Virus record (IMG/VR): IMGVR_UViG_3300021256_000002
Location: 128,001-192,000 of that record
Origin: a virus
Taxonomy: Duplodnaviria > Caudoviricetes
DNA: 64,000 nucleotides
Strand: one strand, 5' to 3'
Part shown: in pieces, positions 1,945 through 56,186 of the stretch
Layout of the letters: the number at the start of each line of letters is the position of its first letter
Numbering within the stretch: position 1 is the first letter of the stretch
Program-made: the position numbers and the translations under genes
Notes under the pieces: model-generated
The model's input: only the letters and a program-made list of their open reading frames with translations
The model's database searches: none
Told to the model about the DNA's origin: nothing

Positions 1945-2931
1945 TTGATGCACCCTTTAGATGCAAAATCATATTCAGATTTATTCACTAAGGATAATCT
2001 GAAAGCCGATTATATTGAATTGATGAAAACATATCATCCTGATAGATATAAAGGTAGTGATGCAAGCAAAATTTGTGCTAAGATCAATGCGCTATACGAA
2101 GAGGCTAAAGCACATGTTAATGATGATACGTGGGGCGATGAATCCAATGTCATTTATATAACACGTAAAAATGATATAAAAATGCGTGTTAAATATCTAT
2201 ATCAGGGGATCAATGAAACCGGAGAATACTACATAGGTAATACCATAGTAATATTCTCCTTCACTAAAAAGAAATTTTTTGATAATTATTTGTCATCTGT
2301 AAAGAAAATAAAGTACGCCGATGATAAGATTAAAAATTATTTTAAGCGTTTTATGCCGGAAATAATTGATAGCTTTACATCGGTAGATGATAAATACTAT
2401 ATCGTTGTTAAGAAAACAGCCGACGTATATCCACTCTGGTTGGTTAAGGATATCTTTAAACAGAAAGAGCATGCTGCTTGGTTATCAACACGATTGTTTA
2501 ATCTTTCAGCATTTTTATCAACGAGTGGTATCGTGCATAATGGTATATCCATTAGCAATATATTTGTATCATTGGAATTTCATGGAGCTTCTCTCTTAGG
2601 TGGATGGCAGTACGCTACATCAGAGGGTAGCAAAATGATTGGAACCAATAAAGAAGTATATTCGGTAATGTCGCCAAGTACTAAAGCAAATAAGCTTGCT
2701 AATTATAATACAGATACGATGGCTATAAAACACATTATATGCAGATTACTTGGTGGTAAAACATATCGAGACTTTGTAAACATCGTTGGTGAGGTATGGG
2801 CTGACTTTCTTATGCAGAGTGAAGACCAACCAATCGACGTTGTTCATAAATGGGAAGATGTACGCGATAAATCATTTAAAGAGCACAGATTTGTCAAAGT
2901 AGATATTCCCGAAAATGTTTATACAAAATAG
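1945..2931 (+). CDS. J-domain (HPD) fused to protein-kinase-like pseudokinase domain
   Basis: N-terminal YIELMKTYHPD...KINALYEEA J-domain; kinase-like GIVHNGISISNIFV and LLGGW where HRD/DFG aspartates are absent. Confidence 0.7.
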   Translation: MMHPLDAKSYSDLFTKDNLKADYIELMKTYHPDRYKGSDASKICAKINALYEEAKAHVNDDTWGDESNVIYITRKNDIKMRVKYLYQGINETGEYYIGNTIVIFSFTKKKFFDNYLSSVKKIKYADDKIKNYFKRFMPEIIDSFTSVDDKYYIVVKKTADVYPLWLVKDIFKQKEHAAWLSTRLFNLSAFLSTSGIVHNGISISNIFVSLEFHGASLLGGWQYATSEGSKMIGTNKEVYSVMSPSTKANKLANYNTDTMAIKHIICRLLGGKTYRDFVNIVGEVWADFLMQSEDQPIDVVHKWEDVRDKSFKEHRFVKVDIPENVYTK

Positions 2932-2943
2932 GAGGTAATTATT

Positions 2944-3891
2944 ATGGGCTGTGGTTCTTGGACATCATCATCGTGGGATTCTTACAAAAAATCGAAGAGC
3001 ATTGACGATAGGTCAACTGTAAGTTCGATCTATCACTCTTCTGAGTGTAAAGACACGATGAATCCGAAGGGAGTAAACGTAAGAGAATCACGGGACTCGG
3101 ATGAACATCCGAATTCCAATGCAATTATCCTCGGGCTTGATGTTACTGGCTCGATGGGATCGACCGCAGAAACTATCGCAAAAGGTGGTCTGAATGATAT
3201 CATTACCGGAATATACGATAAGGATATCTTGGAAGACCCGCAGATAATGGTCGCTGCTATTGGCGATACGTATTATGATGAAGCACCTTTGCAGGTTGGT
3301 CAGTTTGAATCTGACATCCGTGCAGCTGAAAATCTGACGGATATTTGGTTTGAAGCCGGCGGCGGCGGAAATGGTGGAGAGTCATATTTGGCTCTTTGGT
3401 ATTTCGCGGCACGCCATACAAGCATTGACTGCTTCGAAAAGCGTGGCAAGAAAGGTGTTATCTTCACAATTGGAGATGAACCTTGCTGCGCAAGATTGCC
3501 GAAAGACCATATCGAAAAGTTTTTTGGTGATAAAGTACAGGCGGATATCAAAGCAGAAGATATTCTTGCTGAGGTATCAAAAATGTATGACGTGTATCAT
3601 ATTGGATTACGTGAATACGGATTCAATAAAGACGGGTATGGATTCTATCATGATGCAGAAAGTTTTTGGCCTGATCTTTTAGGCGAACGGGCTATGCTGA
3701 TTAAGGGCGAAAAAGATGAAAATCTTGATCGTATCCCTGCTATCATCAACGCAACGCTGGAATTGCGTATGGGACGTAAGTTAGAAGACGTTACCAAAGA
3801 CATGGATTCCTCCACTGCATTGGTTGTAAGAAATGCAGTTGGTGGGCTTAGCGCCGAAAAAGTTGGAAGTGGAGAGTTAGTGGAGTTTTAA
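2944..3891 (+). CDS. von Willebrand factor A domain protein
   Basis: MIDAS-type ILGLDVTGSMG, GGGGNGGESY and FTIGDE motifs. Confidence 0.85.
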   Translation: MGCGSWTSSSWDSYKKSKSIDDRSTVSSIYHSSECKDTMNPKGVNVRESRDSDEHPNSNAIILGLDVTGSMGSTAETIAKGGLNDIITGIYDKDILEDPQIMVAAIGDTYYDEAPLQVGQFESDIRAAENLTDIWFEAGGGGNGGESYLALWYFAARHTSIDCFEKRGKKGVIFTIGDEPCCARLPKDHIEKFFGDKVQADIKAEDILAEVSKMYDVYHIGLREYGFNKDGYGFYHDAESFWPDLLGERAMLIKGEKDENLDRIPAIINATLELRMGRKLEDVTKDMDSSTALVVRNAVGGLSAEKVGSGELVEF

Positions 3892-5547: not shown

Positions 5548-5610
5548 TAATAGGAGCAGGAATATTCCTGCTCCTATTTATGATAATGATATGAATTGAT
5601 TATCTGAAAT

Positions 5611-5627
5611 TTCAAATATATAATATA
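5611..5627 (+). promoter_or_regulatory. Early-type promoter TTCAAATATATAATATA
   Basis: Matches the motif recurring about 17 times upstream of non-structural genes. Confidence 0.7.
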
Positions 5628-5665
5628 CATACGTATGTTTATACTATATTTTAGGGGGTATTGTT

Positions 5666-6448: not shown

Positions 6449-6496
6449 ACCTCCTTTCAAATATATATCATATAGATAGTACATTTGAAAGGAGGT
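6449..6496 (+). promoter_or_regulatory. SD/anti-SD hairpin enclosing an early promoter (cassette A)
   Basis: acctcctttcaaat (6449-6462) is the perfect complement of atttgaaaggaggt (6483-6496); TTCAAATATATATCATA at 6456-6472. Confidence 0.75.
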
Positions 6497-6503
6497 GCTA
6501 AAG

Positions 6504-6677
6504 ATGAACGCTGATGTGCTAAATACAACACAGATCCAGTCTTTGGTTTCGCAGTTGACTATCGCGCATGGTCCAATTGCAGCCAAAGACTGGATCTTAA
6601 CACACATACATCCTGGGGTAAAACAGGCTGACGCAATGTCGGCTATGTTCAGGACGTATAAGAAAATGGTAGCTTAA
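6504..6677 (+). CDS. 57-aa peptide, AK(D/E)WIL family copy A
   Basis: SD gaaaggagg 8 nt before ATG 6504; clearly homologous to 54952-55125 and 55262-55432. Confidence 0.8.
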   Translation: MNADVLNTTQIQSLVSQLTIAHGPIAAKDWILTHIHPGVKQADAMSAMFRTYKKMVA

Positions 6678-6694
6678 CAGCTACTGTTTTAGTT

Positions 6695-6739
6695 AAAAAG
6701 GAGTAGCCGAAGCAACGCTCCTTTTTTACTTTTTTGTTA
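6695..6739. repeat. Conserved 3' element: hairpin/terminator plus minus-strand AACA-N6-TA promoter (cassette A)
   Basis: aggagtagccgaagcaacgctccttttttacttttttgtta; near-identical copies at 55149-55188 and 55455-55494. Confidence 0.8.
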
Positions 6740-29332: not shown

Positions 29333-29430
29333 TGAAATCCATTTGATTTAGATGTATAGGAAGAGAAATCTTCCTATACATTTTATCTCTGTCATGTGAC
29401 AAATTCATAATCATTTCTAATAGAAAGGAA

Positions 29431-35248: not shown

Positions 35249-35764
35249 ATGAGTAAAAATATCGTAGTTGTTACTAACGAAGAGGGAATCATGGACCGCA
35301 TATTCAAACCGTTATATGCGAAATATCCAACCGACCTTACTCCTATTAAAAATGTTACTACCGATACTTCATCACTTGGATTCTGGGCTAAATGGATTGA
35401 AGATGGTTCTAATGGGCCAACTGTTATGGGATGTCCAATTAAAGATAATCCAGGTTACCAAATTATCAAAATTCCGTTTGCTGGGTTTGCTTATATGGTA
35501 GCATATAATAGAAAGTATCAGCTTGATAATCAAAACCTGATAATTTCTATTAAGGAAAAGATTCCAACTCAGACGTATTCGATGGAGTTATATCATCTAT
35601 ATATCAATAGCCGGGTTAAGGTTGGTATTTCCATGTTTGATGAATACTTCAATATGACAGAAGGTAATTCTCTGTTAGGATTGCTATTTGACCCTGTGAT
35701 GGAAATGATTGCAAATGACCAAATTCCTATGGTTAGTCCAGACATCAAGAATCTGTTGTCTTGA
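35249..35764 (+). CDS. Hypothetical protein
   Basis: 171 aa ORF with GAGGGG SD. Confidence 0.6.
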   Translation: MSKNIVVVTNEEGIMDRIFKPLYAKYPTDLTPIKNVTTDTSSLGFWAKWIEDGSNGPTVMGCPIKDNPGYQIIKIPFAGFAYMVAYNRKYQLDNQNLIISIKEKIPTQTYSMELYHLYINSRVKVGISMFDEYFNMTEGNSLLGLLFDPVMEMIANDQIPMVSPDIKNLLS

Positions 35765-35799
35765 CAGGTATTTAAAACCATGATAAGGAAGGTGCTAAA

Positions 35800-53142: not shown

Positions 53143-53249
53143 ACCAGATTCACCTCCTTTCATACTCTAAGATAATATATATTTGAAATCAATATTGAGA
53201 TTTTCTATTATCCGTGACAAAATCCTAACATAAGAAAGGGTGGTTTTAA

Positions 53250-54845
53250 ATGAAGCTTATTCTTTTAGATACAGAAAAATTCTGTCGATTGAATATGCTG
53301 AAAGAAGTAACCAATCCAATTGTACTTGATAGAGGATATACTCCTACATCAGATGGGCTTCTTTCAACATATATTTTTGGCACTTCAACCAAAGATAGAA
53401 AATCTACTTTTGCATATATTGATCTTCATTGCCATGTATTCCATCCGGTAATATATAAGTATATTCGTAGAATGGATAATCGTGTTGAAGGGATAATTGC
53501 TGGTAGAATACGTGTACGTATCGACTCAAAGACTGGGTATTTGATAACTGATGAAGAAGGTAGTACAGGAATTGATTTCCTATACAATAACTGGAACAAA
53601 ATCAAATGGCCTAAGAATGAATCGAAGATGAGATCCGATACGATTGACCTTCTTGCAGCGTATACGAGAAATGAAATTTTCATGAGTAAGCAAATCGTAT
53701 GTCCTGCATTCTATCGAGATGTAAATCTTCAGTCTTCTAAATCTGGTAGACCATCTATTCATAAAATCAACCGTCCGTATTCAAAGCTCATCCAGCTTGC
53801 TGGTACTTTGGATAATGGTGATTTTGCATTCAATTTGAACTATACTAAGTTCATGATACAGAAAACTACGATAGAGATATACGACTACTTCAAGAATCGT
53901 ATAGAGAAAAAACGTGGTTTGATAAAGCAGAATCTTCTGGGTAAGTCAACTGACTACGGTGCTCGTTTGGTAATTACCAATGAAGAGTTCATCTACAATT
54001 CAGTTGAAGAAATGCCGACATCATTCTACAAAACAGGCGTACCTGTTTCGTATTGTATGGCAATGGCAGCACCATTCTTCACTGGATGGATTCAGAATTT
54101 CTTCATTAGGGAATTTGAAGATTACCAATACAAATATCCGGGTTATGATGTAGAAAATAAAAAACCTATATACGTAGAACTTGAAGATCCTAGGATACAA
54201 TTCTCTGATGAGGTTGTACATGAGATGATGGAAGAATACTTACACTCATATGAGCACAGATTCGATCCAATATATCTCAAAACCAAAGATAAGAGATTTC
54301 CTAAGATAACTTTCCGTTTCAAAGGATACAGTGTAGCGGATTCTGAATTCGATCCTCATGACCCAGAGAAATTGTTGAGTCAGCGACCATTTACTTTAAC
54401 TGACTTAATGTACTTAGCTGCTGTTAATATATGTGAAGATAAACACATATATATCACTCGCTATCCGATGTCTGACCATTTAGGTATCTTCCCTTGCGGT
54501 ATAGCGGTATTATCAACTACGGTAACAGAAAAAATGATGATAGACGGAAAAGAATATCCGTTCTACCCAAAAGTTGAAGTTGGAAAAAGCTCTGCAAATG
54601 CATTTAAAGAAGTCTTAACTCTGTCTAATTGTTACTTAAAAGCACTCGGCGGCGACTATGATGGCGACCAAATCACTGGTAAAATAGTATTCTCACAAGA
54701 GGCTAATGCAGAGGCTGAAAGAATCATGCGGTCGTTTACGAATGTACTCGGAATTGATGGTGGTTGCATCAGAAAGACTGAGATTGAAGGCATTCAGACG
54801 TTATACTGCATGAGTCGTTGGAAAAATCCAAACGAAAAATTTTAA
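53250..54845 (+). CDS. RNA polymerase beta' N-terminal catalytic subunit (probably virion RNAP)
   Basis: GLLSTYIFG, KQNLLGKSTDYGARLVI, TRYP and catalytic GGDYDGDQ; late motif gaca-aaatcc-ta at 53216-53227. Confidence 0.92.
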   Translation: MKLILLDTEKFCRLNMLKEVTNPIVLDRGYTPTSDGLLSTYIFGTSTKDRKSTFAYIDLHCHVFHPVIYKYIRRMDNRVEGIIAGRIRVRIDSKTGYLITDEEGSTGIDFLYNNWNKIKWPKNESKMRSDTIDLLAAYTRNEIFMSKQIVCPAFYRDVNLQSSKSGRPSIHKINRPYSKLIQLAGTLDNGDFAFNLNYTKFMIQKTTIEIYDYFKNRIEKKRGLIKQNLLGKSTDYGARLVITNEEFIYNSVEEMPTSFYKTGVPVSYCMAMAAPFFTGWIQNFFIREFEDYQYKYPGYDVENKKPIYVELEDPRIQFSDEVVHEMMEEYLHSYEHRFDPIYLKTKDKRFPKITFRFKGYSVADSEFDPHDPEKLLSQRPFTLTDLMYLAAVNICEDKHIYITRYPMSDHLGIFPCGIAVLSTTVTEKMMIDGKEYPFYPKVEVGKSSANAFKEVLTLSNCYLKALGGDYDGDQITGKIVFSQEANAEAERIMRSFTNVLGIDGGCIRKTEIEGIQTLYCMSRWKNPNEKF

Positions 54846-54853
54846 AATAATAA

Positions 54854-54885
54854 GGTATGATTGCATATGCAATCATACCGTTTTT
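54854..54885 (+). terminator. Intrinsic terminator
   Basis: ggtatgattgc-atat-gcaatcatacc followed by gttttt. Confidence 0.75.
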
Positions 54886-54894
54886 ACTCAGTTA

Positions 54895-54944
54895 ATCCTC
54901 CTTTCAAATATATATTATATCTGTATCATACAAGAAAGGAGGAT
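54895..54944 (+). promoter_or_regulatory. SD/anti-SD hairpin enclosing an early promoter (cassette B)
   Basis: atcctcctttc (54895-54905) pairs with gaaaggaggat (54934-54944); TTCAAATATATATTATA at 54903-54919. Confidence 0.75.
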
Positions 54945-54951
54945 GGTTCAA

Positions 54952-55125
54952 ATGAGTGCTGATATTCTCAGCATTTCTCAGATCCAGGATTTGGTATCTG
55001 AGTTGACCTTTGCTAAAGGTCCAATCGCCGCTAAAGATTGGATTTTGACGCATATCCAGAATGGATATAAGCAGTCTGTTGCAATGGCGACCCTGATGTC
55101 AACTTGGATCGCCTTAACTTCATAG
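54952..55125 (+). CDS. 57-aa peptide, AK(D/E)WIL family copy B
   Basis: GPIAAKDWILTHI identical to copy A; ATG 54952 at normal SD spacing. Confidence 0.8.
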   Translation: MSADILSISQIQDLVSELTFAKGPIAAKDWILTHIQNGYKQSVAMATLMSTWIALTS

Positions 55126-55148
55126 CCAATTATGAAGTTAAACCTAAG

Positions 55149-55188
55149 AGGAGTAGCCGAAGCAACGCTCCTCTTTACTTTTTTGTTA
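55149..55188. repeat. Conserved 3' element (cassette B)
   Basis: aggagtagccgaagcaacgctcctctttacttttttgtta. Confidence 0.8.
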
Positions 55189-55207
55189 ATATATTGAAAA
55201 ATTAAAC

Positions 55208-55253
55208 CCTCCTTTCAAGTATATATTATATCTATATCATACAAGAAAGGAGG
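55208..55253 (+). promoter_or_regulatory. SD/anti-SD hairpin enclosing an early promoter (cassette C)
   Basis: cctcctttc (55208-55216) pairs with gaaaggagg (55245-55253); TTCAAGTATATATTATA at 55214-55230. Confidence 0.7.
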
Positions 55254-55261
55254 TGAGTCCA

Positions 55262-55432
55262 ATGAGTAGTTGCCTTAGTGCAGTAAATTGTAGGGAATTC
55301 GTATTTGCTCTTATCCAGCAATATGGTCATAGAGCAAAGGAATGGATTCTTGATAACATTCCTCCAGGATACTATCAAGCATTAGCCCTGCATGATTATG
55401 CTGACTACTATTGGTATACTATGGGTAAATAA
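55262..55432 (+). CDS. 56-aa peptide, AK(D/E)WIL family copy C (absent from ORF track)
   Basis: MSSCLSAVNCREFVFALIQQYGHRAKEWILDNIPPGYYQALALHDYADYYWYTMGK; same cassette architecture as A and B. Confidence 0.75.
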   Translation: MSSCLSAVNCREFVFALIQQYGHRAKEWILDNIPPGYYQALALHDYADYYWYTMGK

Positions 55433-55454
55433 CTCGTTGGTATAACCATGGAAG

Positions 55455-55494
55455 AGGAGTAGCCGAAGCAACGCTCCTCTTTACTTTTTTGTTA
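55455..55494. repeat. Conserved 3' element (cassette C)
   Basis: aggagtagccgaagcaacgctcctctttacttttttgtta, identical to copy B. Confidence 0.8.
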
Positions 55495-55544: not shown

Positions 55545-55766
55545 ATGGATAAACCGATTTGTGAATGCTGTAATACTGACAAATTCATCGTTCAGCGTCG
55601 TGGTGGTGGATATAGATGTGAGCGATGCAAAACCATATGGAACGAAAGAGGTGCACTTATAGGTCCTCAAAGTACTAAAGCGTGTCGTCAACCTTCTGGA
55701 TTAGATTATATCATAAGTGAGTATTCGTATCAAAGTACCGTGTCATATGGCACAAAGTTAGCTTAA
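55545..55766 (+). CDS. Small Zn-ribbon protein
   Basis: CECC...CERC; AAGGAG SD. Confidence 0.55.
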   Translation: MDKPICECCNTDKFIVQRRGGGYRCERCKTIWNERGALIGPQSTKACRQPSGLDYIISEYSYQSTVSYGTKLA

Positions 55767-55892
55767 TAATAAAGAGAGAATAGAGAATGAATCTCTATTC
55801 TCTCTAATATTCCAAAATAAATTTCAAATATATAATATATACAGGTAAGCCAATTAAACTAAAGTGTTTTAAAGAAGAAAGGACTGGTTTTT

Positions 55893-56186
55893 ATGCTAAC
55901 TGCAAAAGAAGCATTTGAAAAACTTAAAGAGGTGCGTAAGCTTGAAAAGGAAAAAGGCGAAAAACGAATCGCTGAAATGGTTCAGGCCGAAGTTAAAAAT
56001 GTTGAAAAAGACATTGAAGGGGCAATTGCAATGTCTCGGCCGAATCTCACGTACACGTTCGTTGAACGCAACCGTACGATTCAAATGCGAGTCGTTCTCT
56101 TGTTAGAAGAGTTTGGCTATAGCGTAGATTTCGTTAAAGATTCATCCTCTATTACCATTGGATGGACTGATATGGTCGAACTGTAA
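55893..56186 (+). CDS. Early hypothetical protein
   Basis: Early motif 55823-55839; terminator ~56201-56235. Confidence 0.65.
   Translation: MLTAKEAFEKLKEVRKLEKEKGEKRIAEMVQAEVKNVEKDIEGAIAMSRPNLTYTFVERNRTIQMRVVLLLEEFGYSVDFVKDSSSITIGWTDMVEL

Follow-up and report, generated by a model that had tools for sequence, protein, structure and literature searches.

Three copies of a repeated element of about 290 bp were analysed in a 64,000-nt stretch of viral DNA (hereafter the window), which comprises bases 128001-192000 of the 253,296-bp IMG/VR virus record IMGVR_UViG_3300021256_000002 (terminal repeats; 38% G+C). The copies, designated cassettes A (6449-6739), B (54895-55188) and C (55208-55494), contained the same components in the same order: an arm complementary to the Shine-Dalgarno sequence (anti-SD arm), an early promoter of the type found in phage AR9, the Shine-Dalgarno (SD) sequence, an open reading frame (ORF) encoding 56-57 amino acids (aa), a hairpin at the stop codon, and a second hairpin, which is conserved and is followed by a U-rich tail. 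On balance, the copies are best explained as self-contained, movable early-gene cassettes, in which a small gene would be insulated and would be shut off late by an antisense RNA. The best-supported parts of this explanation are the insulation by a promoter that lies within a hairpin and a shuffling of cargo that resembles that of the PeSL (early promoter and stem-loop) cassettes of T4-like phages. Neither had been interpreted in an earlier, first-pass annotation of the same DNA, which had read the repeats as a switch resembling a type I toxin-antitoxin (TA) module.

As judged from its sequence, the source virus is an uncultured AR9-like giant (jumbo) phage. Its RNA polymerase (RNAP) beta'-like protein showed at most 36% identity to those of the Bacillus phages Goe21, AR9 and PBS1; among isolate phages there was no megablast match to the DNA and no tblastn match to the cassette peptide. 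The relatives referred to below are metagenome contigs, denoted by L numbers, one of which (L015) is a 215,922-bp jumbo-phage contig.

Alignment of the three cassettes bore out the earlier statement that they share one architecture. The first-pass annotation had also described a 3' element of about 40 nt as far more conserved than the peptides. This element was indeed nearly invariant across A, B and C, compared to ORF products with 31-56% protein identity (A and B, 56%; A and C, 31%), but the block of anti-SD arm, promoter and SD was equally conserved, not less. A block of 43 nt was identical in B (55146-55188) and C (55452-55494). The 22-nt core of the conserved hairpin, GGAGTAGCCGAAGCAACGCTCC, had three matches in the window, compared to none in 100 shuffles, and, with as many as three mismatches allowed, exactly three in the 253,296-bp genome as a whole, all of them inside the cassettes. 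The core was not found in 185,579 prokaryote genomes or in IMG/VR, where the search may have excluded the source record itself. A 16-nt inner part of the core gave 21 matches in IMG/VR; all were in coding DNA without a stem and were discarded as chance matches. A profile search with the cassette protein family revealed no further relatives in IMG/VR.

Early promoters and the predicted 5' hairpin

In AR9 the early consensus is AAATATATATTAT-(6N)-+1, and the +1 position falls six to seven nt past the early motif (PMC5312081). Approximately 50 sites of this type were present in the genome analysed here, mostly just 5' of ribosome-binding sites. The cassette promoters were equal to the AR9 consensus, with a one-base difference in copy A; early expression of the cassettes, as put forward in the first-pass annotation, is therefore likely. 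The T>C variant that distinguishes the copy A promoter was kept in all of the A orthologs.

The sequence CCTCC was found just 5' of the early promoter only in the three cassettes, among the approximately 50 early sites in the genome. Complementarity between the anti-SD arm and the SD region extended over 14 nt in A, 11 nt in B and 9 nt in C; across 79 promoter-like sites, the complements that bridge a promoter were longest in these cassettes. When at least 13 cassette variants were folded with RNAfold, the RNA that would read through from upstream was predicted to be dominated by an anti-SD/SD stem of 9-21 bp; RNA from the predicted +1 left the SD open (-1 to -7 kcal/mol) in the variants examined. 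The stem flanked the early promoter in all of the relatives found, and its arms carried compensating changes. Cassette A and its orthologs had AAAU/AUUU (at least 16 bp in L004), B had AU/AU, L013 and L048 had CCUGUA with UACAGG or UAUAGG, and L045 had AACCC/GGGUU.

The anti-SD arm lies 5' of the predicted early start, and the SD would therefore be maskable only in read-through RNA. With regard to the upstream contexts, B lies behind an RNAP gene with a late promoter of the GACA type (described below), C lies behind B, and the gene that precedes A has no terminator before the cassette. The simplest reading of these sequences is translational insulation, whereby each cassette would be translated only from its own early promoter.

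A fourth bracketed early promoter was observed outside the window (genome G000:C1:74212-74300), with a 10-nt arm TTTCAATATC/GATATTGAAA as well as CACGTGGTT/AACCACGTG. Since this promoter is flanked by SD complements, promoter-in-hairpin masking may occur elsewhere in the phage.

A second promoter-like family, TTTCAAATATATAATATA, which differs from the early consensus by one T>A change and often takes the form AAATTTCAAATATATAATATATACAGGTAAG, was found at window positions 5608-5630 (+) and 55818-55840 (+) and at genome positions 150868, 232296, 159910, 105019 and 43467 (opposite-strand reading). Members of the family lie ahead of the gene preceding cassette A and of a 97-aa gene at 55893, and the family may represent a separate temporal class. 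In addition, near-identical structured leaders (ATTGGTAGATGAAG...TTCATTCGCTAAGATAGCTT) were located after several early promoters (genome 110273 (+), 236593 (-), 101257 (-) and 16442 (-); window 16251 (+)), which have the upstream box CCTAAAAGT in common.

The 3' hairpins and the late-promoter-like tail

In all variants RNAfold predicted a 3' module of two hairpins, in which a variable hairpin that encloses or abuts the stop codon (hairpin 1) precedes one whose loop is invariant (hairpin 2). The hairpin 2 loop, the 14-nt sequence UAGCCGAAGCAACG, was invariant while its stem covaried: the four outer pairs changed on both sides, and 95.5% of the cells were paired, a value reached in none of 500 shuffles. 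A compensatory double change in this stem separates L015 (GGAG/CTCC) from L049 (GGGG/CCCC), and in L045 and L048 the inner stem was altered around a fixed loop. The folding energy of the hairpin with its U-run was -13.6 to -15.5 kcal/mol, and by sequence the element looks like a terminator. A 73-aa gene follows cassette C in the window and in L013, L007 and L016. This gene has an SD and no promoter; therefore, termination at the C element is probably partial and the gene is probably expressed by read-through of that element.

The exact 22-nt core was also detected in seven contigs from similar sample types (L010, L011, L012, L014, L018, L019 and L022), which had no protein in common with the phage and no Pfam matches. 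In these contigs the core follows hydrophobic peptides of 29-45 aa, has a covarying outer stem without a U-run or AACA tail, and marks the start of a non-coding, conserved module of some 130 nt, in which there is a TATCCCTTG...CAAGGGATA hairpin. Because the loop occurs there without the promoter-like tail, the hairpin's own function would be something besides a promoter, and the invariant loop probably has a sequence-specific role of its own. The first-pass annotation had regarded an element located mostly after unrelated genes, and lacking the tail, as the mark of a generic terminator. This was observed in part for the hairpin, which follows unrelated small ORFs, and not for the tail.

No Rfam family was found for the cassette 3' element. 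A glutamine riboswitch (RF01739, threshold 35 bits) was considered and rejected: copy C scored 15 bits (E = 2), A and B gave no match, and in the cassette lineage the 5' strand of P1 was not kept in L007. An unrelated locus, L019 1457-1508, scored 30.6 bits on the same model, also below the threshold of 35, with a compensatory change in P1.

The dominant late motif of the phage was GACA-N6-TA, with 31 of its 63 genome matches located 15-60 nt 5' of gene starts (14-fold enrichment). In its fuller form, GACA-N5-(G/T)TA-A, the motif lay approximately 25-35 nt ahead of start codons, and it is unlike the AACA of AR9. A second late class, AACA-N3-W-AGTA-A, constitutes a minority of the late promoters and is located before the genes for the major head protein (transcription start site (TSS) 10659) and the tail sheath (TSS 26107); AACAN4AGTA was observed 23 times compared to 11 expected, and 18 of the 23 matches were intergenic.

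On the minus strand the cassette tails read AACAAAAAAGTAAA, which is the AACA-N3-W-AGTA-A form of the capsid and sheath class. The observation in the first-pass annotation that the last 12 nt of the element are AACA-N6-TA on that strand was exact, as were the start positions, which the AACA-N6-TA rule places at 6727, 55176 and 55482. Its identification of this sequence as the late promoter motif holds for the major head and sheath promoters but not for the dominant late class, which is GACA-N6-TA. Antisense AACA-N6-TA was present at nine of 539 loosely defined hairpin-plus-T sites in total; three of these nine were the cassettes, and the motif was found at about 1% of the other sites. Among relatives, in which synonymous sites are saturated, TA-N6-TGTT was kept in nine of 11 distinct cassette tails. 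The motif survived with a different spacer in L045, with altered runs in L013, L048, L015 and L049, and in L046 despite an unrelated hairpin that does not have the conserved loop. In the A lineage the 40-nt element was identical at 39 of 40 positions at a synonymous divergence (dS) of approximately 1.0, and the conserved block ended at TGTT(A). Judged on these patterns, we lean, with modest confidence, towards the cassette tail functioning as an antisense late promoter. Avoidance of AACA-N6-TA across the genome was considered as a functional argument and abandoned, as an AACA-N5-TA control was equally depleted.

Two animal-gut RNA runs from one study yielded unstranded contigs that were 100% identical to the window over cassette B (54941-55173, depth 12.4; 54946-55240) and over cassette C (55272-55439), with the highest depth on B. 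One contig end coincides with the 43-nt repeat, at which an assembly graph must break, and DNA carry-over is possible. In run X3, joints that pass directly from the promoter of B to the element of C gave a hint of other cargos.

Cargo proteins and exchange between conserved flanks

The ratio of nonsynonymous to synonymous substitution rates (dN/dS) was 0.05-0.13 when the cassette ORFs were compared to their metagenome-contig orthologs, at a synonymous divergence of up to approximately 1.0, which identifies them at the sequence level as real genes under purifying selection. A profile search of 1.84 billion representative proteins recovered 12 family members of 40-86 aa. AlphaFold2 modelling based on a ten-sequence alignment confidently predicted a soluble three-helix bundle (predicted local distance difference test score (pLDDT) of 92.5) with no hydrophobic segment. 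The first-pass annotation had not recognised the peptide family, and our searches agreed: there was no significant family for the cassette peptides in Pfam or PHROGs (the only CbtA match had E = 0.11), Foldseek searches of PDB and BFVD returned nothing at E ≤ 0.001, merely generic small helical proteins, and an ESM Atlas feature search with the cassette protein gave no usable match.

In L016 and L020 both flanks were 94% identical to the window, and the ORF of the first cassette had no DNA similarity to that of B and 20% protein identity. The swapped cargo is bounded by a near-unchanged promoter block on one side and by an identical terminator on the other. L007 had one cassette, not two, in which a promoter block like that of B precedes the C cargo. 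The cassette of L015 and L049 was found upstream of the RNAP gene and divergent from it, and that of L046 lay immediately ahead of the sheath gene with its AACA-type promoter. The cargo of L015 is dead as a result of a 7-nt deletion and a TGG>TAG change (3640-3725, minus strand, compared to L049 1160-1303); the promoter, SD and terminator element are intact. These conserved flanks around changing cargo point to mobile, PeSL-like cassettes, a property that the earlier annotation had missed.

The coordinates of the cassette components and of neighbouring features are given in Table 1. The gene 5' of cassette B encodes a homolog of the N-terminal part of the virion RNAP beta' subunit; g145 of AR9 has been annotated as a subunit of the virion RNAP. 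Within the 3' part of this RNAP beta' gene (window approximately 54644-54666), L007 has an HNH/NUMOD4 endonuclease gene (529-1468), and at the same site L016 has two group I introns (2545-2801 and 2858-3135; Rfam scores of 83.9 and 81.2 bits). Neither is present in the window genome.

Table 1. Positions of the cassette components and neighbouring features in the window.
Feature	Position	Strand	Basis
Cassette A anti-SD arm, 14 nt, overlapping the first bases of the promoter	6449-6462	+	Perfect complement to 6483-6496; dominant stem in predicted read-through RNA
Cassette A early promoter AAATATATATCAT, one T>C off consensus; predicted +1 ~6478	6459-6471	+	AR9 consensus match
Cassette A SD arm, contains GGAGG	6483-6496	+	Complementarity, folding
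ORF A, 57 aa, AKEW-family three-helix protein (predicted)	6504-6677	+	Family alignment; dN/dS 0.12-0.13
Cassette A hairpin 1, encloses stop codon	6663-6690	+	RNAfold
Cassette A hairpin 2, invariant 14-nt loop; core 6700-6721	6695-6726	+	Core matches, folding, covariation
Cassette A late-promoter-like AACAAAAAAGTA, +1 at 6727; plus strand is the U-rich tail	6727-6738	-	Motif scan
Late motifs of the GACA type, examples	53216-53227, 35763-35774, 29398-29409	+	Genome motif scan
Virion RNAP beta' N-terminal homolog, late gene 5' of B; GACA-type promoter, +1 53227	53250-54845	+	36% identity to Goe21/AR9 rpoC-like
Bidirectional terminator of RNAP gene, 11-bp palindromic stem, T-rich on both sides	54854-54879	.	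Terminator scan
Cassette B anti-SD arm ATCCTCCTTTC	54895-54905	+	11-nt complement to 54934-54944
Cassette B early promoter AAATATATATTAT; predicted +1 ~54925	54906-54918	+	AR9 consensus
Cassette B SD arm GAAAGGAGGAT	54934-54944	+	Complementarity, folding
ORF B, 57 aa	54952-55125	+	Family alignment; AlphaFold2 model, pLDDT 92.5
Cassette B hairpin 1, encloses stop codon	55114-55141	+	RNAfold
Cassette B hairpin 2; core 55150-55171	55146-55175	+	Core matches, folding, covariation
Cassette B late-promoter-like AACAAAAAAGTA, +1 at 55176	55176-55187	-	Motif scan
Cassette C anti-SD arm CCTCCTTTC	55208-55216	+	Complementarity (9 nt), folding
Cassette C early promoter AAGTATATATTAT; predicted +1 ~55236	55217-55229	+	Early motif scan
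Cassette C SD arm	55245-55253	+	Folding
ORF C, 56 aa	55262-55432	+	Family alignment; dN/dS 0.05 vs L007
Cassette C hairpin 2; core 55456-55477	55451-55482	+	Core matches, folding
Cassette C late-promoter-like AACAAAAAAGTA, +1 at 55482	55482-55493	-	Motif scan
73-aa Zn-ribbon-like gene, two CxxC pairs; SD but no recognisable promoter	55545-55766	+	ORF list, promoter check

Proposed mechanism, precedents and alternative explanations

In the explanation that we favour, the virion RNAP would initiate at the AR9-type early promoter in the loop of the anti-SD/SD hairpin, and the resultant early mRNA, without the 5' arm, would have a free ribosome-binding site and yield a soluble three-helix protein of 48-61 aa. 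Upstream transcripts (late read-through from the RNAP gene into B, from B into C, and from the gene with the variant promoter into A) would carry both arms and fold the SD away. The insulation would hold wherever the cassette lands, translation being from its own promoter alone. The stop-codon hairpin and the invariant-loop hairpin with its U-rich tail would jointly attenuate or stabilise the sense RNA. Late in infection the non-virion polymerase would then probably produce an antisense RNA of approximately 280-330 nt from the tail, reinforcing the shut-off. The conserved flanks would also be recombination substrates, through which cargo would be duplicated, deleted, swapped or relocated. This explanation predicts three plus-strand and three minus-strand start sites.

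A bolder version, which we offer only tentatively, treats the cassette as a timing device that is symmetric and independent of context, each of its two hairpins having a double use. The hairpin on the left, with the early promoter in its loop, would mask the SD in foreign transcripts and, on the opposite strand, end the antisense RNA; the right one would end or stabilise the early mRNA, and its tail would carry the late promoter on the opposite strand. Any cargo would thereby be expressed early only, at whatever site the cassette inserts, and the invariant loop would provide a handle for a trans-acting factor.

Each ingredient has a precedent, in the PeSL cassettes, in T4 gene e and in the antisense promoters of AR9; their combination in a two-polymerase jumbo phage is new. 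In the PeSL cassettes of T4-like phages a composite of early promoter and stem-loop terminator flanks functionally uncharacterised small ORFs; the cargo differs between conserved flanks, and indels and replacements among close relatives map to the flanks (Arbiol et al. 2010, PMC2839356; Comeau et al. 2014, PMC4122927). The cassettes described here likewise have conserved early-promoter and stem-loop flanks around a small ORF, with differing cargo, and the breakpoints in relatives are in the flanks (the L016 swap, the single cassette of L007, and the other sites in L015/L049 and L046). They differ in that the promoter matches that of a phage virion multisubunit RNAP (the AR9 consensus) rather than host sigma-70, in that it lies inside an anti-SD/SD hairpin, in the tail with its opposite-strand late-promoter motif, and in that the cargo is one protein family. 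For T4 gene e (lysozyme) and I-TevI, a hairpin masks the start in transcripts initiated upstream, and a promoter in or beside the 5' arm gives a translated RNA (PMC3014915). Similarly, in long cassette transcripts the SD and an upstream arm are predicted to form a stable stem. The timing is reversed, however: in T4 a late internal promoter goes with silent early read-through, whereas the internal promoter of the cassette is early and late or upstream read-through is predicted to be silent.

In AR9 there are seven mapped antisense late promoters, the RNAs from which are mostly late, and one of these promoters lies past the 3' end of its target g142, at a distance of 82 nt (Lavysh et al. 2017, PMC5312081). 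The cassette tails share the AACA-N6-T(A/G) consensus, with the +1 at the last base. In contrast, the strongest AR9 antisense RNAs oppose the late virion genes g125 and g126; as these are late sheath-region genes, they do not provide a case homologous to the cassettes. Targeting of a repeated cassette or of early genes was not described for the AR9 antisense promoters, and the phage analysed here is approximately 36% identical to AR9 in RNAP beta' and has mostly GACA-type late promoters.

Several observations weigh against insulation combined with late antisense shut-off. The copy A promoter is one base off consensus, and the AR9 virion polymerase is reportedly sensitive to single-base changes in early promoters (PMC5312081). 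A simple terminator scan did not call the cassette element, in which the U-tract is interrupted by A(C), and the promoterless 73-aa gene 3' of C implies that termination is leaky. The same hairpin loop is present in unrelated contigs without the U-run or AACA tail. In two of the 11 tails there was a one-base shift in the T-run (N7 in the second cassette of L016; N5 in the first cassette of L020, where an A is still at +1), and because the tails may all derive from one ancestor, the nine that kept the motif are not independent events. The main late promoter is of the GACA type, and the AACA class could differ from it in timing or strength. Finally, the RNA evidence consists of unstranded metatranscriptome contigs, which are silent on strand and ends.

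It is possible, though we would not call it probable, that the repeats are duplicated early genes of the ordinary kind, whose promoter is conserved and whose terminator is intrinsic, and that no antisense RNA is made. AACA-N6-TA would then be a by-product of the U-tract and GTT of one ancestor, and the flanks would have been kept by function plus gene conversion or recombination. The folding energy of the hairpin and U-run is as expected from such genes, as are the varying length of the T-run with its broken spacing in two of 11 tails, the dominance of GACA over AACA promoters, the unspecific depletion of AACAN6TA (equal in the N5 control), and the evident recombination between flanks. This does not sit well with a motif that is found in nine of 11 cassette tails compared to about 1% of other terminator-like sites, that persists with a new spacer (L045) and a new hairpin (L046), and that extends to the AGTAA form of the capsid and sheath promoters. 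Furthermore, the conserved block stops exactly at TGTT(A), and in every variant the U-tract is broken by an A immediately 3' of the stem. An A directly after the stem is unfavourable to intrinsic termination, yet it is required for a TA start.

A further explanation, to which we assign a lower probability still, gives the hairpin a primary role as the sequence-specific target, in RNA or in single-stranded DNA, of a trans-acting factor such as a binding protein, nuclease or recombinase. The factor would control stability, processing, read-through into the gene 3' of the element or movement of the cassette, and the tail would be secondary. The 14-nt loop UAGCCGAAGCAACG, invariant over a covarying stem and present in unrelated contigs without a U-run, is consistent with such a site, as are the two-hairpin 3' module with the stop codon in hairpin 1, which was kept in all variants, and the need of the gene 3' of C for read-through. 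No candidate factor was identified, however, there was no Rfam family and the glutamine-riboswitch likeness was sub-threshold, and the cassette and tail of L046 are kept together with a hairpin of another kind.

The type I TA analogy of the first-pass annotation was not supported. Type I TA systems with 3'-overlapping antisense RNAs include txpA/RatA and bsrG/SR4 of B. subtilis. The cassettes resemble these in having a small ORF with a convergent promoter motif at its 3' end and a shared terminator region, and the same hairpin follows toxin-like hydrophobic peptides of 29-45 aa in the unrelated contigs. A strict module of this kind, with an early peptide that is harmful if it persists and a late antisense RNA as antitoxin, is nevertheless very improbable. 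The window peptides are confidently predicted to be soluble, helical three-helix bundles without a hydrophobic segment, and therefore are a poor fit to a type I membrane toxin; they are under purifying selection as in ordinary proteins and had no toxin match in Pfam, PHROGs or structural searches, the CbtA match being insignificant (E = 0.11). In addition, the putative antisense RNA would span the whole mRNA and be timed by a second polymerase, L015 tolerates a dead cargo in intact flanks, and addiction has no obvious use to a lytic phage.

The timing of expression without host factors is a subject of study in jumbo phages that have two polymerases of their own, and very little is known of post-transcriptional timing or the turnover of small early genes in these phages. 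The invariant loop, common to unrelated small-peptide loci from the same habitats, is a lead in its own right. If the explanation favoured here is true, the diversifying family of small early proteins would be likely host-takeover or counter-defence factors, and promoter-in-hairpin insulation together with a late antisense promoter would constitute a compact, portable means of enforcing early-only expression. It would also follow that modular shuffling in the style of PeSL cassettes exists beyond the T4-like phages.

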